From NCBI GenBank assembly GCA_964559315.1, contig CAZLGL010000001.1, positions 175,183 to 239,182 of the forward strand: a stretch of 64,000 bases of DNA. The letters run 5' to 3'. The notes under the pieces were generated by a model that saw nothing but the letters and a program-made list of their open reading frames with translations, made no database searches and was not told the origin of the DNA. This stretch comes from an uncultured Coxiellaceae bacterium (GTDB taxonomy: Bacteria > Pseudomonadota > Gammaproteobacteria > DASZBR01). The translations under genes were made by a program, and so were the position numbers. Positions 1 through 52,224 of the stretch are shown here, in pieces; the first letter of the stretch is position 1, and each line of letters opens with the position of its first letter.

Positions 1-1083
1 GGGACAATTAAAATGAATTCGCGGATACCTTGATAATGTCAACCTTGGATCGTCGTGAATACGCCTCGCATCAAAATTAAAGAACATTGTTGCTCTGTTA
101 TTATGAAGATACTGCATATTTCCATAAAATTTTTTATACGTTTTATAAAGCTCTCCACTAGATTCTAGCTCTGTCGCAACAATCACTCTCCCTAAACTAG
201 GGCGAATATCTTCATGTTTTTTAAGAAGTGCTGCTGCGAAGCTAAAATCAGCCTCTCCCAACAACAATCGAGGCTTAAACCGTCGGATGGGTAATCTGTC
301 TAAGCTTTTAGCTAAACTATCAACATCCGTATCAATTTCATATGGAATCCGACATCTGCTACATCCGCAACCTCTTACTTGTGCCACATCTCTTTGAGAC
401 TGTTTTAAATAATCTAATGGGGTGTCCTTTTTTGAATCGACAGCGTTAAGATCTGCACCTGCTTCCAGTAATGCATCTACAACACTTTGCTTACCAACAC
501 GAAATGCTAAGTGCAAAGGTGTCACTCCACCGATACGCTCAATTCTTGTAACGTCACGACTAATCCACATGTCAGCTATACATCCATGACTATCATAGTC
601 ATCAATATCTACAGTTTCTGTAGTATCTAAGTATGTATCATATTTGTAGAAGAGGTGTTTATTTGGCACAACATTTGCACGTGCATTTACATTTACTCTT
701 TTTTCCTTACATAACATCCTTACTACTTCTACATCACCATCAAGTACAGCCAAATGAAGCAATGTCATTTTTTCAAGAAAAATACCATCACCTCCCATAT
801 CAAACCGGATATCTTGAGATCTACCATCATGGAAAACGTGGTTAGGATCAACGTTGGGATCCTGCAAAAGGTCAGAAAGCCTTGCATAATCTTTTGCAAG
901 ATATGCGGCTTGCAATACTGTGACGCTTAAATAGATAACCTCTGAAAGATCTTCTGTATCTTTTTCATCAGCTTGTGTTGATTCATCGCTTTCATCCTTA
1001 TCCCAAAGCTCATCTCCACGTGCGACATCAACCACACAACTGAGATTATTTTGGTGAGCAATATAACGTCGTAACTTTTGCAT
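1..1083 (-). CDS. Ankyrin-repeat protein with a DUF2431-like (BMT5-type methyltransferase-fold) C-terminal domain. The C-terminus runs off the window start; the start codon is at 1081-1083.
   Basis: Hand translation of the minus strand gives MQKLRRYIAHQ...LLHLAVLDGDVEVVRMLC...TPLHLAFRVGKQSVVDALLEAGADLNAVD, which are ANK repeats. It then continues ...RFKPRLLLGEADFSFAAALLKKH, matching the ILLVGEGDFSFS-type motif of DUF2431. The frame is open all the way to position 1. This ORF is not in the supplied track because it is truncated. Confidence 0.6.
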   Translation of the reverse strand, partial: MQKLRRYIAHQNNLSCVVDVARGDELWDKDESDESTQADEKDTEDLSEVIYLSVTVLQAAYLAKDYARLSDLLQDPNVDPNHVFHDGRSQDIRFDMGGDGIFLEKMTLLHLAVLDGDVEVVRMLCKEKRVNVNARANVVPNKHLFYKYDTYLDTTETVDIDDYDSHGCIADMWISRDVTRIERIGGVTPLHLAFRVGKQSVVDALLEAGADLNAVDSKKDTPLDYLKQSQRDVAQVRGCGCSRCRIPYEIDTDVDSLAKSLDRLPIRRFKPRLLLGEADFSFAAALLKKHEDIRPSLGRVIVATELESSGELYKTYKKFYGNMQYLHNNRATMFFNFDARRIHDDPRLTLSRYPRIHFNCP

Positions 1084-1127
1084 AGAAACAGTATCTTGCA
1101 TAAAACTCTCCTTAAAATGACGCCTTC

Positions 1128-1490
1128 TTATTGATGCCCACCAAAATAATAACTTCCATAACAAATCGCTACAAATACAAAAATAAAACCAGGGATTACA
1201 ACACATGAAAGCTTTCTCAAAAAAATGCTCCTTTTACGAATCCTTTCGTCTTTTATTTCACGGCAGTATTTAAATAATATATTAAACGCAAATTGAGTGG
1301 AACTTATTTTATCCATATAGCAGAGTTTTTCGGCATTAAAGAATTCTGACTCAACCTTTTGAAGCTCCATATAAAGCATATTCGAATACACAGAAATAAA
1401 AGCCATGAGGATAACCAGGGCAGGTAATAATAAAAAAGCTAACCCACATAAAGTTGTCAGAATTTTTAAAAACATGCCATCAGGAATCAT
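1128..1490 (-). CDS. Small hydrophobic hypothetical protein (120 aa) with two predicted transmembrane segments.
   Basis: ORF from the track; hydrophobic stretches LTTLCGLAFLLLPALVILMAFI and VVIPGFIFVFVAICYG. No recognisable domain. Confidence 0.35.
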   Translation of the reverse strand: MIPDGMFLKILTTLCGLAFLLLPALVILMAFISVYSNMLYMELQKVESEFFNAEKLCYMDKISSTQFAFNILFKYCREIKDERIRKRSIFLRKLSCVVIPGFIFVFVAICYGSYYFGGHQ

Positions 1491-1919
1491 AATTTACATC
1501 TATACCATCAATACAAGTACTAAACATGCATCTCACAAATGCAACAATTGCTGTCTCGCAATTTGAATATTCTTTTTTTCCCAATATCTGAAAATTCATA
1601 TATAAAGCTTTACCTTTTTATATAAAAACACTATATTTTTATCTACTTGAAACTCTAACAACGATCCTTGAAATGACGCTTCAGGCCTCCAATCACTTGG
1701 ATACCAACCGACGGCTTTCAACTTTTTTTCAATAATTTTTTTATGGTAGATATTTTGACTTTTCCTTCAGGCAAAAGCTTTCTCTCTTGAACACCAAAAT
1801 GAAAAGTGTCTAAAAGCTTTTCAGTAATTTTTTCCTCAATTGACACTGAGTATGCTTCTCATCAAATTTAGAAAATTGCTTTTTTAATTATTCCCGGATT
1901 GCACCGCATTCTACTCAAG

Positions 1920-2939
1920 CTACAGATTTAAAACCTTCTTCAATACATTGCTTTTCATATGTGATTTGAAATCCAGCACTTCAAAAAAACAAGGTTGGCC
2001 ATAATGGCCAACGTGACAATTTAAAAGATTTGATAAACTTCCTTTAAATTGAGTATCTAATAGATCAAACCATGACCTCTGAATCGCTATAACCTCATTA
2101 TTGTAAAAAAAATAACTAAACAATAAATTAACCACTAAACTTTCACATTCTTTTAAAATAGATTCTAAGAAAATTTTATCTACGTTATTATTTAGTGATT
2201 TAACGGTCGCAATAATAACATAGGTAAATTTTTCATCAGGAAGAACGCTACAAACAAATCCATGCATTCTTCTCCTACCATCTTGCAGTGGTGTTTTAAA
2301 AAAATCTTCGCATGGAAATATGACGCCAGTAGTAGCTATTGGAAGTTTATTAAATTTAAAAATAATATATTTTAAATTAGCTTTTCTTTTCAGTTGTTCG
2401 TATAGGTATCGATGCTCCCTAGCCTCTTTAGTCACTTGACGCAGATATATTTTGAAATCAGATGACTCAATATAATTTGTTAATGAAATATCGTTAAAAT
2501 ATCCCTTTATCACACCTTCAGAAAAATCAAGCTGACACTTTTTTTTAAAAAACTCTCGAGCAAGCGCTCTAAAAGTTAGATCGCGTATCTGACTCGCATT
2601 TTCTGGATCGAAATTTGTCTTTTCAAAGGATTGAAACAACTCATTATCATGAAACGTGCAAAATCCTAGAAAAGTAGTAGCATTATTAACCCCTTTTAAT
2701 TGAAATTCATACAAACCAGAAGTATTGTATGAAGAATAGCAAGGGTAATATATGTGCCCATTCTCTGACAGATTATTTAAAAACTTTTTACTTATCGTAT
2801 GTGCCTGACAAATATTTTGATTGCATTCAGATTTACTTTCCGCCATACAATTTTTTTTTGATTCATAATATTTCCTGATCAGATAATCAGAATCCCTCAT
2901 ACAACGTTGAATCTCATCAATTTCCATACAACACTCCAT
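1920..2939 (-). CDS. Hypothetical protein (339 aa), Cys-rich N-terminus, no recognisable domain.
   Basis: Long ORF whose AT-rich codon usage is consistent with its neighbours. I could not assign a family. Confidence 0.45.
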   Translation of the reverse strand: MECCMEIDEIQRCMRDSDYLIRKYYESKKNCMAESKSECNQNICQAHTISKKFLNNLSENGHIYYPCYSSYNTSGLYEFQLKGVNNATTFLGFCTFHDNELFQSFEKTNFDPENASQIRDLTFRALAREFFKKKCQLDFSEGVIKGYFNDISLTNYIESSDFKIYLRQVTKEAREHRYLYEQLKRKANLKYIIFKFNKLPIATTGVIFPCEDFFKTPLQDGRRRMHGFVCSVLPDEKFTYVIIATVKSLNNNVDKIFLESILKECESLVVNLLFSYFFYNNEVIAIQRSWFDLLDTQFKGSLSNLLNCHVGHYGQPCFFEVLDFKSHMKSNVLKKVLNL

Positions 2940-3166
2940 TAAGAACTATGAAATTCACCAAAAACCTACCGCTCGAAATATAATACTACCAAGTCAGTGC
3001 ACAAACATCACTGGCTCCCCCACCAAAACATTGGAAAAATGAATGTTTTTTTGAAAAAAGTCCCGAAAAAAGACATCTGACTCCCGAAAAAGTCCCGAAC
3101 GAAAATTCAGATGAAAAGTTCTTTTGGATGGTGTAGCCTTGAAAAGCTGTTGTGGCGGGCTTAATT

Positions 3167-3198
3167 TGGCTCCCCGACGTGGACTCGAACCACGGACC
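3167..3198 (-). tRNA. 3' fragment of a tRNA (T-arm, acceptor 3' strand and CCA). Probably an att-site remnant rather than a functional tRNA.
   Basis: The minus-strand sequence reads CGTGG-TTCGAGT-CCACG-TCGGGGA-G-CCA, a canonical T-stem/T-loop followed by a 7-nt acceptor strand, discriminator and CCA. The upstream sequence does not fold into a convincing anticodon or D arm. Confidence 0.5.
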
Positions 3199-3221
3199 AA
3201 GTGATTAACAGTTGGAGCCAC

Positions 3222-3330
3222 AAAAGTTAAGTGTTTGATTTTTATGATATTTTACTATCGGTGCGCCCACTACTTTAGCACCGTAGAGCATAATAAATCA
3301 CAGTCAATCTCCGCAAAATCCCCACAGCGT
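3222..3330. repeat. Copy A of an approximately 100-bp structured direct repeat. It contains an imperfect long hairpin (CGGTGC...GCACCG core) and ends in CTCCGCAAAATCCCCAC.
   Basis: About 85% identical to 6347-6450 by manual alignment. A partial third copy is at 13340-13375. Confidence 0.7.
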
Positions 3331-3385
3331 TCTTTTTAAATCTGAATCAGGCAAAAATTTAGTCTCGCGTCATATGCCAAAGAAA

Positions 3386-6061
3386 CTACTTTAGTTTGGG
3401 TTGATTACTTTTTAGTCTCTTACTATCACTTTCTTTAGCCATAGTATTTTCAGATTGTAATTCTTGATTAGAAAAAAGCTTCGCAATCTTGTCCAAATAT
3501 TTCTTTGCACCCATCCCTAATGCATGCTCAACATTACTATCGTCTCCAATTTTAGCGAGGTACACCATGGCTAATTTAAGTGATTCTACCTTTTGATCAC
3601 TCACTTGAGCTTTTGCTTTTTCAAAATAACAAATCCCTAAACCTAGCAATGCGGGAGGCGAATAATAAACCTTTTCGCTTTCTGCATCGCACGCAAGCCC
3701 ATAATTTGCAGACTTTTCGCCCGAATTTTGAAAGTACTTTATAGCGCTATTAATTTCATTTTTTTCGAGCGCTAAATAACCCAAACATAATTTTGAAGAA
3801 ATTCTACCCAATCGTATAATCTCTTGAATTTTAGATGCATAATCTCCTACATAACCAGTTCCATCAAAATAATAAATACGTAAAGGCTCATTTGATCGAT
3901 AAGGGCCAATATTAGAAATAAACTCTCCAGCCGTCTCAAGTGGCGGTGATAATTGTAGCAACAATAGTGGAGAAACACTCTTTAACTTTTCTTTATAGTT
4001 TCGTAAATGCTGTTCACATTCTTTATTCAAACAGAGTCGAAAACACAATAGAGCTAAACAATATTCAATCTCAGGAAGGCATTTATATTTTTCAGACTCA
4101 GAAATTTTCTTTAACTCTTTTATAGTTTGATCAACAAATAAATAAAAGTTAACATCAGGCTCCTGAAAGAAAGATAAAGCGCATCTAACATAGACAATTA
4201 GAATATCTAATGACGCTAAACTATTCTCAGGTTTTCGCAAAAGTTCTTCTAAATTTTTTTTCAAATTTATTACATTTTTTGTATGAACTGCTTCAAAACA
4301 ATTTCGAAAAAACGTGAGGGGAGAATTCAAACTTTTATCTTGAAGTCTGTTTTCTCTTGTAATAAATGTCTCTATACCTTTCAAAAAAATATAAAATGGC
4401 TTATGCATGCAGTAAAAAAAATACTTGGGGAATCTAAATGTCATATCATCATAAGTCCAAAATCGTTCTTCTTTGGTCCCACTCAATGCTCCTTCATTTC
4501 TTTCTGCTTGAAGAATACATCTCTTTTCTTCTGCAACAAGCCATTCATAAAATCTTTTACTGCCACACCGATGCAATAAACCTACCTGATGACTGGTGGC
4601 AACACACGTATCAGCTTCCTGTTCATCCATAGCTATATGGTCCATTGAAGAAACTTCCACCCAACCCAAGGTATTGTTATCATCATATATTTTTGCGAGT
4701 ATATTTTGCTTTTCTTGTTCGCGAGCATCATTATTTTCTCGTGGAGGTGATTCAACACTTTTAATAACCATTAATAAAGACTTTATATACTTAATTAAAT
4801 CATTACGGTCCATTGAAGAAACTTCCACACAACCAAAGGTATTGTCATCATCATATATTTTTGCCAGTATATTTTGCTTTTCTTGTTCGCGAGCATCACT
4901 ATTTTCTCGTGGAGGTAATTCAACACTTTTAACCATTAATAAAAACTTTATATACTTAATTAAATCATCTTGTTTAGCTGAGACATTAATCAAGCGAACT
5001 AATCTAGACATCCACTTGCCGTCTCCGTTACGGGGATGTCTTGGAATTTTTACATCTGGATTGTTCGGATCGGATTTTCGCTTACCGCTTCCTAAGTTAT
5101 CGTAACGTATAATTAATGAATCACGGGTTGCCTCATATAGAAATGCGCAATAAAAAGTATGCCCTTTATAACCACCTACAAGCATCCTCTCTTCTATGCA
5201 ACCACGCACCCCGGATACAAATGATTTAGCAAGAGTAAAATATAACATTTTAACATCTTGCTCTGATACCCCTGCGATTTTTGAGATCGCTAAAACCGCC
5301 TGTCGTTCTTGTTCACGCCTTAGTGTTTCAACTTCGGATATTATCTCGCTACAAATAAGTTCAATCCACTTCTCTTTTTTATCTTCTGGAATTCTAGTTA
5401 TACCTTTTTTAATTTTTACTAAAATCTCAAAGAGTGAAAATATTCTTAAAGGAAGAAATTCATCGGCGTGCCACCCTTCTAATTCATCGCCTTCTTTTTT
5501 GGCATAGCTATATTGACATAAATGAACCATATAACGATCTGAATTATGTTCGCGGTTTAAAATATTGCCGACATCACAACCACAAAGACGACTTACATAA
5601 TGAGCCATTAGAGCAAAATCATCATGCGTAAAATGATGGCTAGTTCTTTCGACACAAATATGCAAATAATGATAAAACAAATCCTGATTAAAAATTTTTC
5701 TTTTTGCTATTAGCAAAGATATTATTCTTATCTTAACTGCAATTTCCAAATTATTTGATTTTACAACCATATCCAGAGGCAATACAAAATTTTTCCCAGT
5801 TAAATTAATATCAATTTTTTTACGTTCATTATTTACAAGTAAATTAATAATATTCTCTGTTTGCTCACCACCGTATTCAATTGCAAGCTGAAGGCCATTT
5901 AACCCGGTTTTCTCGTGAATTTCGTTTGGGTCATGCTTGCCTTCAGTGAGCAGCTCCTGTAGATACCCCAAACTTGCATGCCTTATTGCACCCAACAAAG
6001 GATTAGTACTGCCGCTTATAGTGCTACGACTAGATTCTTCCATATAGCCTCCTAAATACAT
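3386..6061 (-). CDS. Large eukaryotic-like protein (891 aa). It has an ankyrin-like N-terminal region, an internal tandem duplication of about 57 aa, and a TPR/Sel1-like helical C-terminus.
   Basis: ORF track. The N-terminus LNGLQLAIEYGG...NLLVNNERKKIDINLTGKNFVLPLDMVVKSNNLEIAVK is ANK-like. The tandem unit is DLIKYIK(F/S)LLMV...SVE(L/S)PPREN(S/N)DAREQEKQNILAKIYDD(D/N)NT(F/L)G(C/W)VEVSSM. Confidence 0.55.
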   Translation of the reverse strand: MYLGGYMEESSRSTISGSTNPLLGAIRHASLGYLQELLTEGKHDPNEIHEKTGLNGLQLAIEYGGEQTENIINLLVNNERKKIDINLTGKNFVLPLDMVVKSNNLEIAVKIRIISLLIAKRKIFNQDLFYHYLHICVERTSHHFTHDDFALMAHYVSRLCGCDVGNILNREHNSDRYMVHLCQYSYAKKEGDELEGWHADEFLPLRIFSLFEILVKIKKGITRIPEDKKEKWIELICSEIISEVETLRREQERQAVLAISKIAGVSEQDVKMLYFTLAKSFVSGVRGCIEERMLVGGYKGHTFYCAFLYEATRDSLIIRYDNLGSGKRKSDPNNPDVKIPRHPRNGDGKWMSRLVRLINVSAKQDDLIKYIKFLLMVKSVELPPRENSDAREQEKQNILAKIYDDDNTFGCVEVSSMDRNDLIKYIKSLLMVIKSVESPPRENNDAREQEKQNILAKIYDDNNTLGWVEVSSMDHIAMDEQEADTCVATSHQVGLLHRCGSKRFYEWLVAEEKRCILQAERNEGALSGTKEERFWTYDDMTFRFPKYFFYCMHKPFYIFLKGIETFITRENRLQDKSLNSPLTFFRNCFEAVHTKNVINLKKNLEELLRKPENSLASLDILIVYVRCALSFFQEPDVNFYLFVDQTIKELKKISESEKYKCLPEIEYCLALLCFRLCLNKECEQHLRNYKEKLKSVSPLLLLQLSPPLETAGEFISNIGPYRSNEPLRIYYFDGTGYVGDYASKIQEIIRLGRISSKLCLGYLALEKNEINSAIKYFQNSGEKSANYGLACDAESEKVYYSPPALLGLGICYFEKAKAQVSDQKVESLKLAMVYLAKIGDDSNVEHALGMGAKKYLDKIAKLFSNQELQSENTMAKESDSKRLKSNQPKLK
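4637..4981. repeat. In-frame tandem duplication (2 x about 172 bp, roughly 93% identical) inside the 891-aa CDS.
   Basis: Visible in the nucleotide sequence (tccattgaagaaacttccac...ttaattaaatcat occurs twice) and in the antisense ORF 4596..5105. Confidence 0.8.
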
Positions 6062-6346
6062 TAAATAAAAAATTTCAAAAACTTAATGAAATTTAGAATA
6101 CTGATTAATAACGTTTGTTTCAGCGTGGATGTTGCGTAATATTTTAGAAAAATTTTACATCTTATGAGACATTAATTAAATTACCATACTTAAATTTTCC
6201 AATATTCACTTATCCCATTTCATGGAAAGTTTATTATTTCGATGGCAAACAATATTAAGGTTATACCATCGGCATATAAAAAGCAGAAAAATAATTTTTG
6301 TGGCTTCAGAGCTTACATCTTGCTAACCATTACACATTTGGAAAGC

Positions 6347-6450
6347 TAAAAATTAAGCGTTTGATTCATATGATGCTCTAATATCGGTGCGACCGCTACT
6401 TTAGCACCGCAGAGCATAGTAAAGCACAGCCAGTCTCGGCAAAATCCCCA
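6347..6450. repeat. Copy B of the approximately 100-bp structured direct repeat.
   Basis: Aligns to 3222-3330. Its left flank also weakly resembles the tRNA-fragment-proximal sequence of copy A (TTGGAAAGCTAAAAATTAAGCGTTTGAT versus TTGGAGCCACAAAAGTTAAGTGTTTGAT). Confidence 0.65.
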
Positions 6451-6519
6451 CGTAGAAATTTACACAAATAAATTTAACTTTTATTTACCCGTATAAAAAA
6501 TAGTGCTTTAGCTGAACAC

Positions 6520-9500
6520 CTATTTTTTACTTGCAGACATGCTTGCGTTAGAAGCTCCTGAAACTTGCGGATAAGCTTTATCAATTCTATCCTGGTAATA
6601 AGCTAAAACATTGATGTGACAGCCCATATCTCTGGACTCTCTTTCCAATTTTTCTACCAGGTCATCAAAAGTTACTCCGCCTAACAACTCTGAAAGTTTT
6701 TTTAAATCAAAATCTTCTACCAAAATATTGCAAAGTTTATTACTGGTAGTATTCAGAAAATGCATTACAGATGCTGAGCCTTCATTCAACCCAATTTTTT
6801 TAAAATTTCTTCCACATGTTCCAGCGCTAATTAATGCCATACACGTGCTATCTAAATCATTATTAGCTAAAAAATCTCGCGCCCTTAGTAGAAAGTAACC
6901 TGCTTGGCATAATAATTTATTAGCTCTATCCGATAGGCGAATATCAGTACCTGATTTTTTATTGAACCTTGCGCTAAGACCTTCTTTCAAAGTAGTTTGT
7001 TGAGATTTATGCGTTGGTGAAGAAAAGATTCCCACTTTCTCTAAATTACTTCCCTTGGGTGCTTTTTCTAAACGAAGTGATGGAGCTGGGGGCAAAGTTA
7101 TTGGGCTATCAAAATCATCAATTTCCGCTCGCTCAATAAAATCTTTTATTTCTTTTTTAGGTTCATCTCCACCTGTAATTATTAAAGACTGAAAATGTAG
7201 ACCAACCTCGTAACCTAAATAAAGTATACCTACAGAATTTTTACGTCGTAAAATATTAGGTTCTTGGGCATCACTTCGTATCAAAACAACCGTAACATTC
7301 AACACTCTCGCTAAGGCTTGAATAATAATATGGTCCGCCCATTCTCCCTGTTGAGACATTTTTGCAATAAACTCGTCCATGTCTTCAATAGAATCTTTGT
7401 ATAAATCAACATAATCGATAAGATGCTGAATCACACATTGGCGAAGATATTCTGCGGTAAAATTTTCACTATCAGCATATCTTATTTCCTGTAGCTGATC
7501 TAAAGTTCCATGAAAAAAACAATTTCCATCTCTCTCTATCTCTTTAACTATAAAACCAAATGATTCCGCTCGTGAAAGCAAAACAGCTCTCATCTCCTGC
7601 AGTTTTTCATTTTCTAGCAAAGAAGCCTCCCTAGCTTTTTGCATATCTCTCTTATCCCATCCGTCTTGAATGGCGCAAGAGAGTTTTTCATAAATATCTC
7701 TTGTCTGTGTTTTCTTTTCATCAACATAGTTTAAAATTGGCTCATGCTTAATCTGTTGCCCATCTCCTTGAACCTCCTCAAAATTATCCAATTTTGCCGC
7801 AGGCTGACCACTGTTAAACAGAGTTAAATGATTTTTTGCACGTCTCTTTGATGAATTATTAGGACGAGAGCTCGAACTTAACTGAGATGACGAAGATACA
7901 AATAACGGATCTTCTTTAGTCTTATCGCTTCGATTAGGTGACACGGAAAGCTGGGAAGATTTTACTCTTAGTGAGCCTCGAAAACCCCTACTAGTCATTG
8001 AAATTTTCCCCTCAGATAAACGGGGCTTACCGCTAGGAACAAAAACAGATCCTGGATTTAGTATACGTGGAGATCTAGGGCTTCCCCCTACTCTATGAGG
8101 AGATAGAAGTAAATCATGTGGATTATTTGATATTCTGCGTAATGATACGATGCGCTCCCAAATACAGTGCACAGAATATACGCCTGAAATAGTTAATAAG
8201 TCAGATGCTTCTACCAGTAGATTATTTCTATAATATTTACAGCTTAATTTAATTTTATTACCATCAGCAGAACTTTCCTCAACACTGCTGGCTGATACGT
8301 CTTGCACATTAGATTCTTTTATTTTTTCTTCAACTCTACGCATCCCAGGTGATAATTCTCCTGTAGCGCGTTTCTCGTGTCTAGGTGACAAAGGCGTTTT
8401 GCGTGACTGTTCCAGAATTTCATTTAACAATATTTTTCCAGATAAAAAAGCTGATTTATATGCCCCATTATTATCAATCAGCATATTCATAAACTGCTTA
8501 AACCCTAAAGTAAAACCAATTAACTGATCACAAACCTCTAAAATTTTCTCATCGTAGCTATTTAATTTTTTTAATCTTTCAAATTCCTCGATTGTACTTT
8601 CACATTCCAGAAGACGACCGTCTATCGTAAGAGACAAAATCTCATCGTATCGCACAAATTTAGTTATAGCATCAACATTAGCTTTACTCTCTTCTTCATC
8701 TTTCCCTCCCGGTCGTAGTATTTTTTTTGAATCAAATTCACTAAAAATGTCATCTTTACTATACCAAGTAAGTATTTTTTCAACTATGTCTTCTTCGGGC
8801 TCGCCTAAAGAAAAATTACTTATCCATGCACACTTAAGTTCTACGTGAACAATTTTAATAATTTCAAAAACACAGCATAAGACTTTCAAATAACCCTGTG
8901 TAGCTGTACTCAAATTAAGCAGACACTTTTCTAAAAATAAATACCGCTTAGCTTTATGTGAACTTAAGTCTCCATCTTTCTTAACCTTCTCCTGAAAAAT
9001 ATTAAAAAAATCTTCATAAGTGCTTCTATTCACAGTACTTTTACAACCTGGAAGCTTATAACCATTTAATGAAAACAAGTACTCTAGATCTTCCATATTC
9101 CTTAAAGCTTCGACAGTAAGATCGCCATTCTTATCATAAGTATCCGCATTTTTAGGATTTTTCAAAAAAATTACACCATTTGTAATTTCAATCTTATCTT
9201 TTAAATTCTCCAAGAACTCTTCTAATGCTTTTCTTTTAAAAAAAGAACGAATAAATCCGCCCTCTAAACGTTTTATTTTTTCCACGAGCTCAAAATAAAT
9301 GCTTGACGTATACTCAACAGCAAGCTTATCAGGTGAGTTAACCTCTGATTTTGATTGAAAAATTTTTATCTTAGTAGGCTTTTCAACAACTTCTAGCCGC
9401 TCAAAATGCACATAAGAGCTTGTTAAAAGAAGATGAATAACCCGAGTGTCCTCTGCAGTCTTTTTTGGGATAGCAATTTTGTCAGGCTCAAAATCTAAAG

Positions 9501-20700: not shown

Positions 20701-23700
20701 CAAGCTTTACAACACCGTCGACTAATTGTGTTTGTGAAATGGGTTTCGGATGCGCATCAAAACCAAAACGGGTTTCCATCATTTGAAGTAGGGGTTGCGG
20801 ATTAGATGGATGATCTTTATTCGTCAACCAGTGGAAATTTCGAACAATATTGCCCGTCTCATTCACTGCAAAACCCGCAAGATTAGAATCTCCATCTTGC
20901 ACAACCAATGGATGACCTCGCGCTATATCTAAAAACTTTAAGGTTAATTGATCTTTATCGGGATTCACTACAATCGGTTGAGGCGGTAATAAGGTAGGTT
21001 GTGACGTTGCAGCTCCACTTTCAAATTTCTGCCTACCCACTTCTTCTTTAAATGCATTGGTAAAATAAAATGTCAGCGGAATACTTTTATTGCCATCAAG
21101 ACGACGTCTAGGAAGCGCTGTTTCCGCAATTTTGGTTTGACGCGCATCATAATACTGACACGCCATTCCCCCTTCGATATCTACAGTTGCAACAATATTG
21201 TCTAACGCATTCAAAATAAAACGCGTCATAATAGTTTGGGGAGGAAAATCTTGTAGATAATTACCGAGCTGAGGATTATCAAGCATTAATGCTTGAACAA
21301 TTATATTTGAACGACCTCGTCCTGTTACCTTTCCACGAATATTGTATTCAATGACATGAAAGCGATCCGCAACTTTTGGATCAGCTTGATAATAACTTAA
21401 TAACTGACGATACGTTGTTGTTTGATCCGGTTTTTGTTTTAACGCACCACCCCATTGAATAAGTCCTGCGTAATCATGAAAGGGATTGGTATAGCCGTAT
21501 AAATCTACACGACCATTCGTATTACATACGGCTAAATCTTTTCCTGCTTTGTTATACCATTTAAATTCTTCGGATAATTGTCCAGGAGATTGCAATTTAC
21601 CTGTGTAAGTCAATTCGCCAAATGCGTTATAACCAAAATTGGATTCTGGCGACATTTTGTCGATAACTTTCTGATTATTTACAATCGTTGCATACAACAC
21701 TTCACCGACTGTCATTTGCTTTGTTAGATTACCGTTACGATCTCGCCCACTTTGTACCGCACGATTTAAAGGATCAGACAATTTATTTGCCATCGCTTGC
21801 TGAACCACATCTAATGGCACACCCGTTTCTTGATATGGCGTTAAATCAAAATCAATTGGCTGGTTATAAATAATGGTATTTTCAATTTCACCAAACGCAT
21901 TGCGTACTTGTTGATGAACAACATTGGTATCCAAGATCTTATAAACCTCTTGGCCTTCACTGTCATAAACCGTAAATGTCCATAATCCTCGCTCATCACG
22001 TTCAGCCACTTTTTGATTACGAACGTTACTAACCGTTTTTTTCTCGAGGGTTTTTGTAGTAATCGGAAGAGTTGCAAAACTTGCGGGTTTTGTTCCATCA
22101 TCAACAGGAACACCTTCTGTTTGCACCGATTCCAATTGTTTATTTTTGTTATACGTTGAGGTAACTTTACGCGGATTTTGCGTATTAACACCTGCGGTAA
22201 CGGTTTTCGGCAAACCACTGCCGTAATATTCTGTTTTAGTTTGAACCGCAATTTTTTGAAGATTTCCTAAACTTAAGCTTCCATCAGCCGCGCGATTCAC
22301 ATCAAAAACAGCGACTTCCGGATCGGTCGCTAACGTTTGACGTTTTGCACCATCGTAGTCCGCATGCCACTGATTACCCATTTTATCGGTACGCATTTTG
22401 GTTAAATTAATGGAATTAATTTCATAGTGTTCCATGAAACCTAAACCATCTGTTTTTAAATACAGACGATTTGCGTTATCAAATCCTTGAGTATCAATAT
22501 CATCTTTGCTCGGATCGGGAACCAACGCATTTAGAGCAGTCACTAATGCGTCATAAGTTGTGGGTATTGTAAATTTGCCAGCAAACTTACAGGTTTGTGT
22601 TGGATTGTTATTTTGATCATAACCAAATTTCGTCACTCGGCCGTTGGCGTTATCAACATCAAATGTCTCAACTTCAGCTATCTTGCGATTTAAATTGTCA
22701 TAGACTATATAAACTTTACGGTCATTGTCGGGATTCAACACCGGTATTTGATTAGGATCGCTGACTTTATTGGCATATTTTGTAATAACAATAGGCTTAC
22801 CCACATCATTAAATTCATACCCAACGACATAGCCTTCTCCATCAACTATGCGAGCCGCCTGACCTTTTGCATCCCGAATGTAATATTTATTTCGATCTTT
22901 CGCCGGATCGGGTTGAATTAATGCAGCTAATTGTGCGGTCGTTAAATTCGGGTTTAAAGTTGTGGGATCTATTTTATTGCTGTACGAAATGGTCTGAATA
23001 ACTTTGGGGGGATTGGCTGCATTAAAAATACTATGCGCTACCGCACCTAAACTATTAACACGATAAGCCTCATTTCCATCTTCATCATAAAAGTAATACA
23101 ACAACGCATCTTGTGTTGATGCCGCTTGCGCGGCCAACTGCTCTAACTGCTCCAATGTCGTGCTGTCATCAACAGTCACACCATTGCAATAAACACGCTC
23201 ATATTTTAAACGAAGGTCATTATCATAAAACCGCTCTTTCAATCCCCCTTCAGGTGTAACCGTAAAACGATGCTGGCTTAACTTCGTAAAATAATGTCGG
23301 GTAATATTTTGGTCTTCATCCATTTCCCAAATAATATTATTTGCTGCATCTAATTTTTGCGTAGTTTGTAAATTCAATCCATTAGGGTTAATAGCTTTAG
23401 GGTCAACAATTTTGCCATACGTGCGATTAAATCCATCGACGAGATTCGTTTCGACATATTGATTAGGGTTTTTAGTATCGCCTTCAGCATATTGTGTTTG
23501 AGTGCCCAGCGCGTTGCGCCCATACGTCTTAGTTAATTCTAATCCGCCGACATCCGTCACCACCTGTTGAAGGTTATTATTCTTGGTAAATACTTGTTTG
23601 GTCTTGATGGTTTTCGGATCAACAATCAGTGTCGGATTATTAAATGCGTCTGGTGTGTAATTTACGGCTTGGGGATTAGCACTTTGCGCATCATTGGCAA

Positions 23701-26700
23701 TTTTTTGAACTGCACCCGTAGGGCTATATCCAAATTGTGTTTGAACGGCTAACGCATCTGTGTAAGTTTTTTTCTGTGCAATCAAATCAAACTCTTGAGT
23801 GGTATCCTTCTGTAATTGATCAGTATGAACATGCACTTGCCCATCGGGAACATGCGTTTTCGAAACAGAATTAGTTAAAATATCTGTTGTTTTTACCTCT
23901 TGATTAAACACACTCAAATTCATCATCGTGACGGATTTACCGGTCGGGGAGGTAACCGTATGCGAATGATCAGCTCGATACGTATGTTGAGAAGTATTTT
24001 TATAGGCGTCCGTCTCTGTCACAATGCGATTTATAAAATCATACGTGTAAGTATTTCGCACAACACTTTCGGATTTTTTAGTGATGACATTACCCACTAA
24101 ATCATGGGCTTGCTCTTCAATCCCACCCAACGTATTTGTATGTATGGTTTGTTTATTCAGAGGAGTCTTAAATTCCCATGATTCTACAATAGGAGTAGCT
24201 GTAGAACCGGGTGTTAAATCTGTTTTAGTTAAGGAGGCTTGATTACCTCGCGTATCGTAACCGTGCTGAATTTGTAAGGTAGGATTAGCTGAATTAACGG
24301 GTAACAGTTCAGTATCGATTTGACTAAAAGCATTGTAAGTTTTTTTAGAGATATTACTTTCAGCATCCGTAATCGTAATAACATTGCCACGTTTATCACG
24401 TTCATAAACAATAATATGATCTAAGTTACTCTGAAGACCTGTAATTTTTGCTTGGAAATCTGGCGTTAAAAATCCACCGGTTAACGCTCCTAACGACACG
24501 TCATAAAAATTAGCGTATTTACGATTTTGAATTTCTTTTCCGAAACTGTCTAACGTACTTTCTTCAATACTCAAATTGGCATTAATTTTTAATATGGGAC
24601 GTCTATTGGCGTCATAATAAATATACGTTATATTTCCTAAGGGATCAGTCGTTGAGAGCAGTAATCCCGTTTGATCATATTTATTCCGCTGACTTTGTGT
24701 ATCCCAAATAGCTTTTATTTTAACGGGATCACCATTTGCTTCAGCTAATAACTTTCCCACATACACGTTGGCTTTATTAACCGCTTGGCTCCAACCATCA
24801 TATTGAGTTTGCGTCTGTCGCAAACTATCCCCATCCGTTTTGCCATTCGCGCTATTATCTAAACTATTATTTAAAATAATATTGCCCATCACATCAAACT
24901 GGATATTATCAACCCGATTAAAAGGGGCATTTGTTTTTATTTTGCGACCTAATAAATCATATTCATACGTCGTTAATAAATCTTTATCCTTGTCAGGCTC
25001 AGGTCTTAACGGAAATTTTCCTGTCGGTTTATTGGCATATTGTTTTGCTGTTAATCTCAAACCGTTTGGGGAATAGGTATATTCTGTGTAATATTCATTG
25101 GGATTTAATCTTGCAATAATTTGACCACGCGCATCGTATTCAAAGAAACTAACTCCAACATCCCCATGTGATACCACATCGAGCAACTGATCAAATGTTA
25201 AGGTTAAATCGAGATTACCTTTCGTGTAATACACGACTTTGCTTGCAATACGCCCACCCACATCACGAACCAATTGCGTGATATATCCTGCCGCATCTTG
25301 CTTGCCAATTAATAATCCATCATTGTCATAAAATGATCGCGTGAGCCTATCTTTTGTAAAATCTTGCGCTAAATTAATTACACCACCACTTTTTAGCGTA
25401 TTTAAATCCGTATCAGATAACTTAGCTGCATATTGGATAGTTCCTACTCTGCGATCTAAATTGTCATAAATATATTGAGTAATATAATTATCTGTGTCGA
25501 CGTCATATTGTTTGCGACCCGCTTTATCAAAAAATGTATAGCTTTGATGATCTTTAATCGGATCTTTTATTTTATCGACTAAGCTTATTAGCGTACTTGC
25601 CGGGGGAATTAAAGGGGGTGGAACTTGAAGCTTTGTCATATCAATTGGATTTGCATAAGCAATAGCCGTATTAAATCGGTTCTGCTTATCGAATTGATAT
25701 TGGGTCACAATACCGGTTGCCGAAACAGAATACCCTAGTCGATTCTGTCTATCATAAAAAGTGTATTCTTGCTTACCATCGGGACGCGTTGTAACTTCAA
25801 TGCGACCACCGGTATCGCGTGCATATTCATATTCTCGATATTGTTGTTGATTATCTAGAGTGGATGCAGAGCTTGACGATAATTGGGTTAATCCATTATT
25901 TGCATTATGCGCAACGGTCACTTTTCCATTGGCATACGTTGTCGTGACCTGCATTGTATCATCATGATATTCAGTCGTTGTTGCATTTTGTAATGCATCA
26001 ACAGATCTAGTAAGACGATTTACCCCATCAAAAGCTTGTAGCGTTTTTGAAGTATTTTGAGCATCTTGCTTAACATCACGCTCCGTCAAGTTTCCGAATA
26101 AATCAGAAACAATGACTTGATACCCCATAAATTCATCTTCAATACCATTACCATTCGCATCGACATTTGCAAAAGTTGTTTTTACTCTCACTTGCCCGTG
26201 CGGGTCATATAAATATGTTTCTAAGCTTATAGCATTGGACTGTTTTTTCTTTTCTTGTTCGGTAACCCAGCTCAACATAAAAGAAATATCAGGCGAAGTT
26301 TTAGGTGTAATTAAATTCTTTGGGAAAGCTGTCTTTAAGTAAGTTCGTTTTGACCCAATATTTCCCCGCTCATCGTGACGATACTCTGTAACGCGACCTT
26401 CTGGCGTAATCACAAACCGCAAAAAAATATTCAGATTGATGCCATCATTGACGCGCTCATATACATAACTTGTTGTAAGTGGCGTGTTGGGATTTAAATA
26501 TTCGTTTTTGACTAATAGTATGCGTGTTTCAAAATCACTGGTATAAACATATTGTGTACGCTGACCTTCGGCATACACATGATTATTTAATAAATTACAA
26601 TTTTCCGGATCATACGTTCGATGATCAATTCCACCATTCGGCAAAACAATGTTTTCTAGCTGGTTTGTAACTGCATTATATGTATACTGAGTTACGTCTA

Positions 26701-27697
26701 CTTTTTCATCAGGAATGTTATATCCTTTTTGACGCGTAACGTCGGCTAGATCTCCATTATTATAAAACCTAAGTGTTGTCTGACTTTTAAAACCATCTGT
26801 AATAAATGCACGATTAGGTTGACTTGCATCCGCATAGGTAATACGAGACGTTAACGCACCTCGTCCATTACCTTGTTTTATCATGCTGACACCAAAACGC
26901 GGATCATGCGTGAAGCTAATAGAAGTTCCGTCTGTCTGCGTAACAGTATCTAATAATCCACTATCATTGAGATAAGTATATTTTGTTTGATAACCACCAT
27001 GTGCGGTACTGATGCTTAACCGTCCCAACGCATCAAATTCATAGGTATTTAATGTTATACTCGTTGAGGCATCATAAATTGCAATGGCATTCGGGGCATA
27101 ACGAATCTCATAATCATTTCCTGTAGGCCCCACAATGTGCCTTAATTGCCCATTTTCATATTTATAGGTAGTCGCTCTTCCCCAACGATCGGTTTTTTTA
27201 GTTAAAAATCCATTCGTATCGTAATATTCAACATTACCTGTTTCCGGATCATGCAAAATCCAGCAGTTATATTCCGGACGCGAATCAAATCGCATGAATT
27301 TCGTACCACCCACCGATTCTTGTGCAAGATAGTTATTCGGATTTTGGGGATCTTGTTTATACGTTGTTAAGTGGCCATCTTCTTCTTGTAAAGTTCCCAC
27401 ATTATTTCCATTAGGCAGTGTTACAAATTTTTTATGGCTAAATTGCCATGCTCTGGAAGGCTCTGTAATTCGACTGTTATACGTAAATCGTAAATTTAAG
27501 GCGAAATTGGCTTCTTGAATCGTAAGTACACGATCTTGGAAAACTAAATTGCCTGTCACCAAATTCGGCCAGCATTTTAATTTGGCTCCGCCAAAACTTT
27601 TTTCTTTAAGTACACTACCCACTTTTTCATAGGAAGAATAACTTAAGCCCAGACCATTACTGGTAATAGGAGAAAAAGGATAGGTTACTTCTTGCAT
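14792..27697 (-). CDS. Giant RHS/YD-repeat protein (4301 aa) with dozens of YD repeats, a LysM domain near residue 3440, and a roughly 850-aa C-terminal region of unknown function containing a hydrophobic segment.
   Basis: Abundant YD-repeat signatures (YTYDFINRIVTETD, YEYDLLGRKIKT, FYDKAGRKQYDVD, YIYDNLDRRVG, YTYNAVTNQLENI...). The LysM-like stretch is WDVKNGDTLESIAQATCGSTQAAGALSAANGGIDDQQLKNGNVIKIP. The hydrophobic stretch is VVILAVAVGVGNWAGTALMW. The ORF is uninterrupted over 12.9 kb. Confidence 0.85.
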   Translation of the reverse strand: MQEVTYPFSPITSNGLGLSYSSYEKVGSVLKEKSFGGAKLKCWPNLVTGNLVFQDRVLTIQEANFALNLRFTYNSRITEPSRAWQFSHKKFVTLPNGNNVGTLQEEDGHLTTYKQDPQNPNNYLAQESVGGTKFMRFDSRPEYNCWILHDPETGNVEYYDTNGFLTKKTDRWGRATTYKYENGQLRHIVGPTGNDYEIRYAPNAIAIYDASTSITLNTYEFDALGRLSISTAHGGYQTKYTYLNDSGLLDTVTQTDGTSISFTHDPRFGVSMIKQGNGRGALTSRITYADASQPNRAFITDGFKSQTTLRFYNNGDLADVTRQKGYNIPDEKVDVTQYTYNAVTNQLENIVLPNGGIDHRTYDPENCNLLNNHVYAEGQRTQYVYTSDFETRILLVKNEYLNPNTPLTTSYVYERVNDGINLNIFLRFVITPEGRVTEYRHDERGNIGSKRTYLKTAFPKNLITPKTSPDISFMLSWVTEQEKKKQSNAISLETYLYDPHGQVRVKTTFANVDANGNGIEDEFMGYQVIVSDLFGNLTERDVKQDAQNTSKTLQAFDGVNRLTRSVDALQNATTTEYHDDTMQVTTTYANGKVTVAHNANNGLTQLSSSSASTLDNQQQYREYEYARDTGGRIEVTTRPDGKQEYTFYDRQNRLGYSVSATGIVTQYQFDKQNRFNTAIAYANPIDMTKLQVPPPLIPPASTLISLVDKIKDPIKDHQSYTFFDKAGRKQYDVDTDNYITQYIYDNLDRRVGTIQYAAKLSDTDLNTLKSGGVINLAQDFTKDRLTRSFYDNDGLLIGKQDAAGYITQLVRDVGGRIASKVVYYTKGNLDLTLTFDQLLDVVSHGDVGVSFFEYDARGQIIARLNPNEYYTEYTYSPNGLRLTAKQYANKPTGKFPLRPEPDKDKDLLTTYEYDLLGRKIKTNAPFNRVDNIQFDVMGNIILNNSLDNSANGKTDGDSLRQTQTQYDGWSQAVNKANVYVGKLLAEANGDPVKIKAIWDTQSQRNKYDQTGLLLSTTDPLGNITYIYYDANRRPILKINANLSIEESTLDSFGKEIQNRKYANFYDVSLGALTGGFLTPDFQAKITGLQSNLDHIIVYERDKRGNVITITDAESNISKKTYNAFSQIDTELLPVNSANPTLQIQHGYDTRGNQASLTKTDLTPGSTATPIVESWEFKTPLNKQTIHTNTLGGIEEQAHDLVGNVITKKSESVVRNTYTYDFINRIVTETDAYKNTSQHTYRADHSHTVTSPTGKSVTMMNLSVFNQEVKTTDILTNSVSKTHVPDGQVHVHTDQLQKDTTQEFDLIAQKKTYTDALAVQTQFGYSPTGAVQKIANDAQSANPQAVNYTPDAFNNPTLIVDPKTIKTKQVFTKNNNLQQVVTDVGGLELTKTYGRNALGTQTQYAEGDTKNPNQYVETNLVDGFNRTYGKIVDPKAINPNGLNLQTTQKLDAANNIIWEMDEDQNITRHYFTKLSQHRFTVTPEGGLKERFYDNDLRLKYERVYCNGVTVDDSTTLEQLEQLAAQAASTQDALLYYFYDEDGNEAYRVNSLGAVAHSIFNAANPPKVIQTISYSNKIDPTTLNPNLTTAQLAALIQPDPAKDRNKYYIRDAKGQAARIVDGEGYVVGYEFNDVGKPIVITKYANKVSDPNQIPVLNPDNDRKVYIVYDNLNRKIAEVETFDVDNANGRVTKFGYDQNNNPTQTCKFAGKFTIPTTYDALVTALNALVPDPSKDDIDTQGFDNANRLYLKTDGLGFMEHYEINSINLTKMRTDKMGNQWHADYDGAKRQTLATDPEVAVFDVNRAADGSLSLGNLQKIAVQTKTEYYGSGLPKTVTAGVNTQNPRKVTSTYNKNKQLESVQTEGVPVDDGTKPASFATLPITTKTLEKKTVSNVRNQKVAERDERGLWTFTVYDSEGQEVYKILDTNVVHQQVRNAFGEIENTIIYNQPIDFDLTPYQETGVPLDVVQQAMANKLSDPLNRAVQSGRDRNGNLTKQMTVGEVLYATIVNNQKVIDKMSPESNFGYNAFGELTYTGKLQSPGQLSEEFKWYNKAGKDLAVCNTNGRVDLYGYTNPFHDYAGLIQWGGALKQKPDQTTTYRQLLSYYQADPKVADRFHVIEYNIRGKVTGRGRSNIIVQALMLDNPQLGNYLQDFPPQTIMTRFILNALDNIVATVDIEGGMACQYYDARQTKIAETALPRRRLDGNKSIPLTFYFTNAFKEEVGRQKFESGAATSQPTLLPPQPIVVNPDKDQLTLKFLDIARGHPLVVQDGDSNLAGFAVNETGNIVRNFHWLTNKDHPSNPQPLLQMMETRFGFDAHPKPISQTQLVDGVVKLVTLAQYNSFNENIAQGFVNPQGQPEYFEFTDWDVTGHSWRHNRKGIPTITIRNLCGHIGLQLTSMTQDLRQVQYADIPNLVRTAKMEDLMQAWIVRDSANREMQRYLPEFSENDPNQFKNIPLSMVVGKQYPDMGTVSLSWEHPSVPIIDPRMTIWPASNPDFKALVTIKKSYTRFGVDLSALPTDVYQYEIEDHLIGNDQRVLFQTIGTFQCDTGIVQGSTRLVVEVQNGSTLFLTGNTTNLTAIKLLKNGVQVGQDIPVPANHLIDLSVYQSDVYTVQPVVTAQDNLPQSLPFTIFTNTLSEKPLALELDSTFSLKYLSNSKMRKPSDPRKYYFELDWTVSDERYDNSVIEVSFEYIVEGTQNPQKSNVFAITHQTNEGKVYDEKGNAVNVNMVLDLEPNSPLPVPPITIKSLTIILVLDGNIRVPICNGYPFQNSSGGSGVTIINSLSFRPTTIIYFAPITQFDQLPAMQYFDTSSGVAGTWTVIDPIAKTAQGIVVDATLLLPGNYPFKMAKTLLELQERSLQDESRRLLAEFEGKTADPEIDGIFTIGQGSMVFTSVPVLTILTSKKPVRAMEHDNFDNISKVTDTYGYSTDNQFDARGKLVETEHPEVEVELSNGATVKMRPVTKWGYDIRGHKIGVRDGNNHTRGWIVDEIGQVIKSVLADGTISEQQLFNALQQMVQFLDSTQEEYTFQYDHRNNLVWRKLPSKKVELFWYNEQNSLGSYTDTAGKTEFYHRDINDNITKFISAMGKITEYVNDLLTNQPTRQTNSDGSFLAWVLDNFGYTQNHTDLSGAVVTRQYNFLMQPTSIEGQGGNHGVQLVYVKKTGRLPNSWEWGTYYELSLIPTLPQNMRLGYREDGLLNQGVDLSLARRTTLGFDTEGRRTYFKAEREGAVIREISSVYDPMSRMLITYGTQEIVIQGYDATENIMYRKTTLYPPQGDPVVNEERNAFDQNDSATVYGGVLANGQTGIQPNKGTAYTSANGLRKTQTKQTADGTTVTETLTYNPDKLLGGSTSTDGSVTVRGYDNANRPNSWALTHPNAPHGNSEAQTATWDDDSNLTNASSTSVKWFNWPIIGWKSSTTQAFTTYGGLNAYGMPTSQQTIYTQTDQDNVTDNLALAYVNREQPEEATIGGTRTDSNGTSPYNAAYDYQGPNPGELTGQNQPLALWIIFKGKIPLFTSSYIEQDCLEGQILKRRDFDGLSGNFSGDLPLNLSNKMTDISFLTDISGNLVASVNVWRDLNNPGTYSIGTNYAMPGTKGILATRGKNPNVTTDFTIGEKMINPIDKSYPPMNAGIWDVKNGDTLESIAQATCGSTQAAGALSAANGGIDDQQLKNGNVIKIPQWIQQKYRVSTTEEFDQMITSMTQQLYPKLLTPQPKQDFGFFDEMLDVVILAVAVGVGNWAGTALMWTSWEAETAVAAVAGAVLDAAKQGIEYEAGMRDSFSWREVVQMSVESAFAEYSKLHPGGDLVDSMMKAGAIDVAQQLVLMALVKGSHFSLKEVLEQMGSAGIGYALQQKLMPNNGDGMSEAEKDIARTKINAGTIIYSGILRGVFEQRFDLNDIMSIMANFVGTELGQAIVDKINPEPKTQQSKINNKVSQNLGSHSSTRTLEDDITEFWDEIKEEVVGFVSFFDPSVTQPNAQPSAKTQTQQSQQQRKLSQAQAMARHGIYSKPVVLNHADANGYLGTGLGLPDDPTIDNFDPNSDGTLSGSGVSRAPTTQSSSSVIMQGLQELNNSSVVHGLAMMDVAMQAGATDILGMTHIGVSQMNFPEQASYAVGQMLGAIGFAASLPIDAPVALTAAMLDAGRNYVGSFFSAESAAELTLGKTSASMLQGTEKITPELVNAMNLKGRVVVVASQGSEDYKYLEAMNAEASTNTALPNHILIKYDANKSALLEEFLHGTQNKLGIVDELGPQGAEVHVKEFMLRHANMLGLNNPSDVKLLQQLHIEEINRLPEPRFVRNMP

Positions 27698-43618: not shown

Positions 43619-43933
43619 TCAAGTCTTTATAAGGTCACTAGGAAGAATAGTGTTAATTTGCTTTTTATAAACTAGTTGAGGAACAGGGGTATTTAAAAAA
43701 ACAATATCATCTGTTAAACCAATAATTTTGCCCGTAAGCCTTACGCCATTTTTAAGGTAAATAGAAACATAAGATTGGTTTTCGATAAGCTGCTTAAGAA
43801 ACCTCGATTGACAGTCCATAGATATATACATCGTTAATCTCCTTATAAACGATTCAAACAAATTATCTCTGTAAACTGATCCTATCAAAATATATGTTTT
43901 ACGCAATATTTCATCTTGAAAAGGCTCAATCAT
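43619..43933 (-). CDS. hfq: Hfq-like (Sm-fold) RNA chaperone paralogue with an N-terminal extension of about 45 aa.
   Basis: FLKQLIENQSYVSIYLKNGVRLTGKIIGLTDDIVFLNTPVPQLVYKKQINTILP aligns to the Hfq Sm1/Sm2 motifs (VSIYLVNGIKLQG...ILL...QMVYKHAISTVVP). Confidence 0.6.
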   Translation of the reverse strand: MIEPFQDEILRKTYILIGSVYRDNLFESFIRRLTMYISMDCQSRFLKQLIENQSYVSIYLKNGVRLTGKIIGLTDDIVFLNTPVPQLVYKKQINTILPSDLIKT

Positions 43934-52212: not shown

Positions 52213-52224
52213 AGACAATCTCAA

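Follow-up and report, generated by a model that had tools for sequence, protein, structure and literature searches.

A displaced tRNA-Asn fragment and its neighbouring repeat as the probable attR of an integrative and conjugative element with accreted relics in a Coxiellaceae genome

We analysed a 64,000-nt stretch of DNA from an uncultured Coxiellaceae bacterium (assembly GCA_964559315.1, contig CAZLGL010000001.1, positions 175,183 to 239,182; hereafter the window, numbered from its first letter), in which a piece of a tRNA gene adjoins a repeat that recurs further to the right. We read the tRNA piece and the first repeat copy, together 3167-3329, as attR of an integrative and conjugative element (ICE) inserted in tRNA-Asn(GTT) by a tyrosine integrase with its crossover in the anticodon loop; the two other repeat copies we take for relics of inner attachment (att) sites. 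We give this reading a probability of about 0.85. It is carried by the identity of the tRNA fragment, by a family of arms fused to the anticodon-loop junctions of tRNAs, and by the link of these arms to the family of an integrase from another genome (locus L043). From the sequence we also infer protein binding to the arm, an order of events and a present activity of attR, all of which are worded below as proposals.

Results

The tRNA fragment starts at the anticodon loop of tRNA-Asn

The original prediction, made from the letters of the window, had placed the 3′ fragment of a tRNA at 3167-3198 of the minus strand. The fragment is real and lies on that strand, but an extent of 32 nt is too short. 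The string GGTTCGAGTCCACGTCGGGGAGCCA occurs once in the window (3167-3191, minus strand), with a chance expectation of 0. Scanning one genome per species with the 29-nt pattern GGTCCGTGGTTCGAGTCCACGTCGGGGAG returned 35 loci; of the 21 examined with ARAGORN, 20 were called as holding an intact tRNA-Asn(GTT), and 17 of those genes were aligned to the fragment. By this alignment it spans 45-46 nt (3167-3211/3212), from A31/C32 to CCA, with one mismatch to the closest gene, the tRNA-Asn of L043. Included are the anticodon loop CTGTTAA, the 3′ strand of the anticodon stem, the variable loop, the T arm, the 3′ strand of the acceptor, the discriminator and CCA. An anticodon arm had been reported as missing, which is half right: its loop and 3′ stem strand are present, while the rest of the arm is absent. 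There is no tRNA likeness 5′ of the anticodon loop, and the fragment starts exactly at this loop, a known crossover sublocation in tRNA genes.

ARAGORN called no tRNA or transfer-messenger RNA in the window. Rfam gave no match there at the gathering threshold and no tRNA match at the fragment even at E ≤ 10. Hence, 3167-3212 is a fragment and not a gene; a full tRNA gene at this place would have spoken against the original prediction, and none is called within the window. A weak match to the tRNA-like 'mascRNA' (13 bits, E 7.3), in which GGCUCC pairs with GGAGCC across the junction, was judged insignificant.

The match to tRNA-Asn, together with the loci of relatives described below, supports the view that the tRNA piece is an att-site duplication left by a tRNA-targeting integrase. 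Its layout is that of the anticodon-centred (class A) attP sites (Islander; Williams 2002), with no essential difference: the block of identity runs from the anticodon loop to the tRNA's 3′ terminus, and the displaced 3′ fragment stands in gene orientation at the integrase-distal end of the island. For the 3919 islands of Islander, which takes a regenerated tRNA and a displaced fragment as the marks of island ends, 2083 attP sites are recorded as anticodon-centred, along with 125 tandem arrays (PMC4383910).

A repeat of about 117 nt adjoins the fragment and recurs in the window

Next to the fragment lies the first of the repeat copies, which we call A, B and C in order of position. By BLASTN, 3222-3325 in copy A and 6348-6451 in copy B are 84.6% identical over 104 nt (E 9e-29), and a profile lengthens the repeat unit to the limits given in Table 1. 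The string CTCCGCAAAATCCCCAC, at up to 3 mismatches, occurs 3 times in the window, against 0.10 expected. All copies share the orientation of the tRNA fragment, and A and B flank an open reading frame (ORF) of 891 aa at 3386-6061. The repeat of about 100 bp in the original prediction is thus confirmed, by BLASTN and profile, as two full copies that bracket the 891-aa ORF, but its third copy is merely 22 nt long. The other 58 kb of the window yielded no further copies, even with a broadened profile.

Regarding copy B, its flank had been described as a degenerate version of the tRNA-proximal sequence of copy A. This is correct for about 14 nt: a core remnant (TCCAAATGTGTAAT, against TCCAACTGT-TAAT in copy A) resembles the tRNA through the anticodon loop (TCCAAaTGTgTAAT, 6329-6342) and no further. 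Beyond the anticodon-loop equivalent the similarity is at chance level (723 of 1000 shuffles score as high), with no T arm or acceptor. Copy C shares the arm motif alone; none of 300 shuffles reaches its score against the integrase-side (P′) arm of L043, and there is no adjoining tRNA or integrase relic around it. It may be the relic of a third att site, beside a region of RHS repeats. Non-coding DNA near copy C also holds two 31-nt direct repeats (TTTGCAATGAGGTnTTTC...) 52 nt apart at 13658-13740, with a weaker third copy at 10463-10493.

One could argue that a segmental duplication within this genome, copying the region of A, produced copy B, and not a separate integration, given that A and B are direct repeats just 3.1 kb apart and that B is without a tRNA fragment of its own. 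We find such an origin very improbable. Copies A and B are 78.8% identical over 118 nt, and A is 79.7% and 83.1% identical to two copies in the genome of another organism (locus L039). Since A is as distant from B as from these, independent arrivals are indicated and not local duplication. Furthermore, nothing outside the 117-nt unit is duplicated between the A and B sites, and L039 shows genuine tandem att sites within the arm family, with an integrase relic at the inner one.

Relatives fuse the same arm to tRNA-Asn, tRNA-Arg and tRNA-Met

L039, the sole locus of the tRNA-pattern scan tested with ARAGORN that has no intact tRNA, belongs to an unrelated Gammaproteobacteria metagenome-assembled genome (MAG; 39% GC). 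It carries the element twice, at 72-188 and 2465-2581 (E 1e-31 and 4e-36), 2.4 kb apart, the upstream copy at 72-188 having been revealed by a profile built from three copies (A, B and the L039 copy found first). Both are directly followed by a 3′ fragment of tRNA-Asn. The inner fragment is directly followed by 57 nt of coding sequence for the 19 C-terminal residues of an integrase, which share 84% identity with the same end of the L043 integrase. L043, from the same MAG, presents the intact tRNA with an adjacent integrase, in the order tgt, tRNA-Asn, integrase and an AlpA-like gene; the integrase gene encodes 379 aa and its end is 6 nt away from the tRNA. This organism therefore has tandem att sites: tRNA-Asn and integrase at one end, then arm, fragment and integrase relic, then a 2.4-kb module without integrase, then arm and fragment again. 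The tandem element and tRNA-Asn fragments of L039, with the integrase relic, favour the serial (tandem) integration at one tRNA-derived site that the original prediction had offered among its options.

Two further features of L039 concern the tRNA part. Its inner fragment (189-234) has a compensated T-stem, CCAGG/CCTGG, where the outer fragment and the intact tRNA of the MAG both have CGTGG/CCACG; this is a different version of tRNA-Asn, as expected if it was brought on the attP of an element from another host. Around the anticodon loop there is a dyad with a paired change, CCAA...TTGG in the window (3205-3215) and CCCA...TGGG in L039 (2578-2606), and in the two lineages compared these may be core-type sites that keep their symmetry.

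The family of the L043 integrase comprises more than 7,000 proteins at E ≤ 1e-20, with named members from Legionella pneumophila, L. maceachernii, L. anisa and Coxiellaceae. Integrases 64-66% identical to that of L043 have homologous arms at other tRNAs, again with anticodon-loop junctions. In L055, the arm is followed by a 3′ fragment of tRNA-Arg(TCG) that begins at the loop CTTCGAA, about 6 kb from the intact tRNA-Arg and its integrase, and three more arm relics lie near by. In L046/L049 (L. pneumophila), the order is arm, 3′ fragment of tRNA-Met (from CTCATAA), P′ side and intact integrase, a joint that is attP-like; an identical integrase stands beside the intact tRNA-Met in L047. Overall, in 7 of the 8 full-length members of the arm family the anticodon loop of the target tRNA (CTGTTAA for Asn, CTTCGAA for Arg, CTCATAA for Met) comes within about 10-25 nt after the element. 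These arms form a small sample, of which 4 are Asn-type, 3-4 Arg-type and 1 Met-type, taken from loci reached through the tRNA pattern and the integrase homologues. The original prediction had not identified the repeat as belonging to the att site itself; with the homologues at L039, L055 and L046/L049 we now read it as an arm of that site.

L055 holds one arrangement of another kind. At 16375-16560 (plus strand) an arm relic is followed by the reverse-complemented 5′ half of tRNA-Arg(TCG) and its upstream flank, a diverged second copy, and not by the 3′ half. The intact tRNA-Arg lies at 11228-11304 (minus strand), and its anticodon loop contains the palindrome TTCGAA. With such a palindromic overlap, integration in inverted orientation may have been possible in L055.

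Scans with exact patterns brought no relatives. Genome contigs scanned with CTACTTTAGCACCGNAGAGCAT gave 0 matches, as did viral contigs scanned with CGGTGC-N13-GCACCGNAGAGCAT. The latter pattern gave 7 matches in metagenome contigs, all of them chance hits in coding DNA of 55-72% GC. The contigs that carry homologues of the 891-aa protein (L008-L010) contain no copy of the element.

The same-orientation repeats separate small modules in three genomes, of 3.1 kb (window), 2.4 kb (L039) and about 2.5 kb (L055), as integron-like cassette sites (attC-like) would; a dispersed miniature repeat, such as a repetitive extragenic palindrome (REP) or a miniature inverted-repeat transposable element (MITE), might also have come to lie beside a tRNA relic by chance. 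We find this explanation very improbable, too. No integron integrase, and no integrase of any kind, is present among the window ORFs scanned, in line with the absence of an integrase reported in the original prediction; nor is there a conserved hairpin of the attC kind, and we reject an integron-like reading of the cassette-like recombination site suggested there. As regards a REP or MITE, the 64 kb contain 2 full copies and 1 stub, and the full copies in other genomes all lie at tRNA-loop junctions. The anticodon loops that follow 7 of the 8 full-length members indicate tRNA-type att sites and not random intergenic spread.

The repeat shows no conserved RNA structure

The original prediction described the repeat as structured, with a long imperfect hairpin (core CGGTGC-N13-GCACCG and extended arms). 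This description does not hold for the family. The extended (outer) stem forms in copy B only, as an interrupted hairpin of 13 bp, and the 6-bp core stem is broken without compensation in the inner L039 copy, the fourth member. Folding energies were compared with those of dinucleotide shuffles for four copies, the window copies on both strands, and were no different (z -0.10 to -0.96). We detected no covariation beyond chance, with 370 of 500 column shuffles reaching the observed value.

These measurements bear on the possibility that the repeats are a transcribed structured RNA downstream of effector genes, a small RNA (sRNA) or an element of the 3′ untranslated region, with a functional hairpin. 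Copies A and B each lie downstream of a large same-strand ORF, at a distance of 57-65 nt, and the hairpin of copy B could form. Against an RNA stand the energies at shuffled level on both strands, the uncompensated stem and the lack of covariation. Likewise, 2900-6700 holds no terminator-like site, the copies contain no sigma-70-like promoter, Rfam has no match for the element, and the conserved block is the loop. In addition, the full copies adjoin tRNA anticodon-loop junctions, for which an sRNA has no need. We thus reject a functional sRNA, also among the options of the original prediction, as very improbable.

Candidate protein-binding sites within the arm

Arm-type sites of integrases are typically repeats found on both arms of attP, and differ between elements. 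At its far end, the arm carries two 7-nt half-sites 11 bp apart: GTGGGGA and GCGGAGA in the window, GCGGGAT and GCGGGAG in L055, and GCGTGAC and GCGTGAT in L046. A like pair is found in the P′ arm about 50 nt 3′ of the tRNA, inside the C-terminal codons of the integrase (L043 1137-1148; L039 284-295). There, it reads GTGGGGA/GTGGGGG in L043, while L055 has two copies of GCGGGAC and L046 two of CTTCGGGA, so that the motif varies in parallel on the P and P′ sides within the Asn, Arg and Met elements. The arm is conserved among elements with related integrases, and repeats, putative arm-type sites, stand on both the P and the P′ side, the latter in L043, L039, L055 and L046. From their position and conservation, the half-site repeats (GTGGGGATTTTG type) are predicted to bind the integrase.

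In the middle of the arm lies the imperfect palindrome CGGTGC-N13-GCACCG. What is conserved across the Asn, Arg and Met arms is the 'loop' block, AAAGTAGTGGGCG, and not the stem, and the block is probably a protein-binding site. Closer to the anticodon-loop junction, copy A has a match to the consensus of the integration host factor (IHF), AATCAAACACTTA; the site AATCAAnnnnTTA is also present in copy B (6354-6366) and in both L039 copies, and the tRNA-Met arm of L. pneumophila has AATCAACGACTTA. This consensus is weak, with 19 matches in the window against 9.4 expected, and the assignment of 3228-3240 to IHF is suggestive only. The arm is like lambda attP in its distal tandem arm-type repeats on both arms, in an IHF-like match between arm sites and core, and in a P arm of about 115 bp; the sequences are unrelated, and the resemblance is one of position between predicted sites.

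The DNA to the right carries cargo and conjugation genes

The window is AT-rich throughout, at about 36% GC. The outermost module, between copies B and A, consists of the 891-aa gene, whose product has no Pfam domain. Homologues 28-35% identical lie beside a type IV secretion system (T4SS; L008) or an integrase (L009), and the protein family may travel with conjugative elements. The L008 homologue, on a Logan contig (1-12469), is 31% identical and comes right after a complete VirB-type T4SS and a type IV coupling protein (T4CP). The 891-aa ORF also contains two direct repeats of 165-168 nt (4636-4968; 91-97% identical), corresponding to a duplicated segment of about 55 aa.

The middle module encodes a leucine-rich repeat (LRR), a PAS and an OTU-domain protein (Table 1). 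Further cargo follows to the right: an RHS protein of 4301 aa, a kinase with ankyrin (Ank) and LRR repeats and a tetratricopeptide repeat (TPR)-Fic protein. The gene of the RHS-repeat protein lies at 14792-27697 (minus strand) and is followed by a 97-aa ORF. A 320-nt fragment at 13758-14077, with stop codons around it, is 91.6% identical to an internal part of this gene (16101-16420) and has the look of an rhs orphan. The element also encodes a Hfq-domain protein of 104 aa (43619-43933, minus strand) and, at 35-38 kb, response regulators, a histidine kinase with a PAS domain and a helix-turn-helix (HTH) regulator.

Rightwards of the att site, the DNA resembles an ICE in carrying a conjugation module, with a T4CP, a relaxase and T4SS components that are cut by the window end. 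A 639-aa ORF without Pfam domain lies between the T4CP and relaxase genes (52920-54839, minus strand) and contains tandem repeats (52968-53618) with a period of 117 nt, or 39 codons, and 74-81% identity. Megablast of window positions 1-14000 and 48000-64000 against plasmids gave no match. The conjugation proteins are singletons at 90% identity, and the T4CP is less than 30% identical to any plasmid T4CP in PLSDB (tblastn).

Table 1. Features of the window discussed in the text (strand relative to the window as given).
Feature	Position	Strand	Basis or remark
Displaced 3′ fragment of tRNA-Asn(GTT)	3167-3212	-	Alignment to intact tRNA-Asn genes, positions 31/32-76
Copy A of the ~117-nt element; read as P arm of attP, now attR arm	3213-3329	-	Profile match, E 7e-37
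IHF-consensus-like site AATCAAACACTTA (consensus WATCAANNNNTTR)	3228-3240	-	Consensus match; ~16 nt from anticodon-loop junction
Imperfect palindrome CGGTGC-N13-GCACCG with conserved block AAAGTAGTGGGCG	3259-3283	-	Comparison of Asn, Arg and Met arms
Candidate arm-type integrase-binding site, half-sites GTGGGGA and GCGGAGA, 11 bp apart	3308-3325	-	Same motif on P′ side
891-aa cargo ORF, no Pfam domain	3386-6061	-	Sole gene of outermost module, between B and A
Core remnant beside copy B, TCCAAATGTGTAAT (copy A: TCCAACTGT-TAAT)	6329-6342	-	Sequence comparison
Copy B of the ~117-nt element; read as relic P arm of inner att site	6339-6455	-	Profile match, E 7e-37
Middle cargo module, three genes	6520-13172	-	Pfam scan
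1213-aa OTU-domain protein	6520-10161	-	Middle module
170-aa PAS protein	10509-11021	-	Middle module
684-aa LRR protein	11118-13172	-	Middle module
Copy C, isolated 22-nt arm-type motif GTGGGGATTTTGCGGAGGTTGC	13343-13364	-	BLASTN, 95% identity
TraF-like S26 peptidase	46078-46590	-	Pfam
Conjugation genes, element body	50440-63711		Pfam matches
T4CP (T4SS-DNA_transf)	50440-52212	+	Pfam
MobA/MobL-type relaxase-helicase	54978-57854	-	Pfam
TrbI/VirB10	62602-63711	-	Pfam

Discussion

The feature at 3167-3329 is a genuine and ordinary outcome of tRNA-targeted site-specific integration. In the mechanism that we propose, a tyrosine integrase would have inserted the ICE at the anticodon loop of tRNA-Asn(GTT). 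The 45-46-nt piece would be the displaced 3′ part of the target and would constitute the core of attR (overlap plus B′), and the ~117-nt repeat would be the P arm of attP, comprising the distal arm-type pair, the central block and the IHF-like site near the core. With the fragment on the minus strand and the arm on its higher-numbered side, the element runs to the right and takes up the remainder of the window; beyond 64000 we would expect the regenerated tRNA-Asn and the integrase. Related elements would have integrated serially at the same site (accretion), leaving B and C as inner relics, and in the older ones the integrase and the P′ arm would have decayed away, together with the tRNA part in the case of B. 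The 891-aa gene and the LRR, PAS and OTU genes would then be cargo of earlier arrivals, now carried by a composite element. The joint at B may have come from a later deletion that started in the core, or from recombination at a secondary site that resembled only the overlap.

Several points weigh against this interpretation. The intact tRNA-Asn and the integrase are not in the 64-kb window, so that the other end is one we infer. Copy B is without T arm or acceptor, and simple accretion needs an extra deletion or secondary-site recombination to account for it; downstream of B we found no integrase or P′ relic. Copy C, a motif of 22 nt, could be a chance survivor or a P′ site. The targeted scans of genomes, metagenomes and viruses found no exact-pattern relatives of the element. 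Finally, the arm-type, IHF and central-block roles are assigned from position and conservation.

Among known systems, the closest parallels come from Legionella and from streptococcal ICEs. The genomic islands of Legionella are flanked by tRNA 3′ repeats of 37-48 bp, and where several of them follow one another they are taken to reflect multiple insertions, with each attR being that of an element that can excise on its own (PMC3864950). Like the islands and ICEs of the LGI-1, LGI-2 and LpcGI type, our element has a tRNA 3′ repeat at its end, a body that carries a T4SS and variable cargo, and the integrase family that matches the arm has members in L. pneumophila, L. maceachernii, L. anisa and Coxiellaceae. 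Unlike in the Legionella elements compared, the target in the window is tRNA-Asn, and the conjugation proteins stand alone at 90% identity.

Accretion of ICEs as well as IMEs (integrative and mobilizable elements) has been described as integration, decay to an integrase-less cis-mobilizable element (CIME), further integration and gene capture (PMC5704250). Like ICESt1 and ICESt3 of Streptococcus thermophilus, the window has, at one end of an ICE, an integrase-less segment between two att sites that point the same way. In L039, the inner module of 2.4 kb fits a CIME: both of its att sites are present, and of the integrase gene no more than 57 nt are left. In the window, copy A with its fragment is complete, but the inner site B keeps the arm and about 14 nt of core, which sets the segment apart from a strict CIME. 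Because neither the 3′ part of the tRNA nor a P′ arm is left at copy B, the 891-aa module can probably no longer excise by itself and is a relic, not a strict CIME.

In the window, L039 and L055, three unrelated genomes, successive arms are 2.4-7 kb apart, and the module that each arm closes holds one to three genes; the relic arms might thus be more than random debris. Moreover, at copy B and at L055 13800-13909 the tRNA similarity ends at, or a few bases past, the anticodon-loop equivalent. The L043-type integrase family might hence capture small integrase-less modules routinely, sometimes at secondary sites that resemble only the overlap, and effector arrays might be built cassette-like at the ends of ICEs through tRNA-type att sites. 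We put this forward as a tentative and rather unlikely extension of serial integration.

Serial insertion at tRNA genes is a well-known route by which bacteria gain genes. For this Coxiellaceae genome, attR fixes one boundary of a large conjugative element at 3167-3212. The discrete blocks of eukaryote-like effector genes (the OTU, LRR and 891-aa genes) most likely came as cargo, brought by one element after another through a single tRNA-Asn site. The novelty is modest: a ~117-nt arm common to relatives that target Asn, Arg and Met tRNAs, which we did not find described in the literature examined, and recurring small modules closed by arm relics in three genomes. The profile of this arm, together with the tRNA fragment, is a practical marker by which the ends and inner joints of such islands, even relics whose tRNA part is gone, can be located in Legionellales-like genomes.

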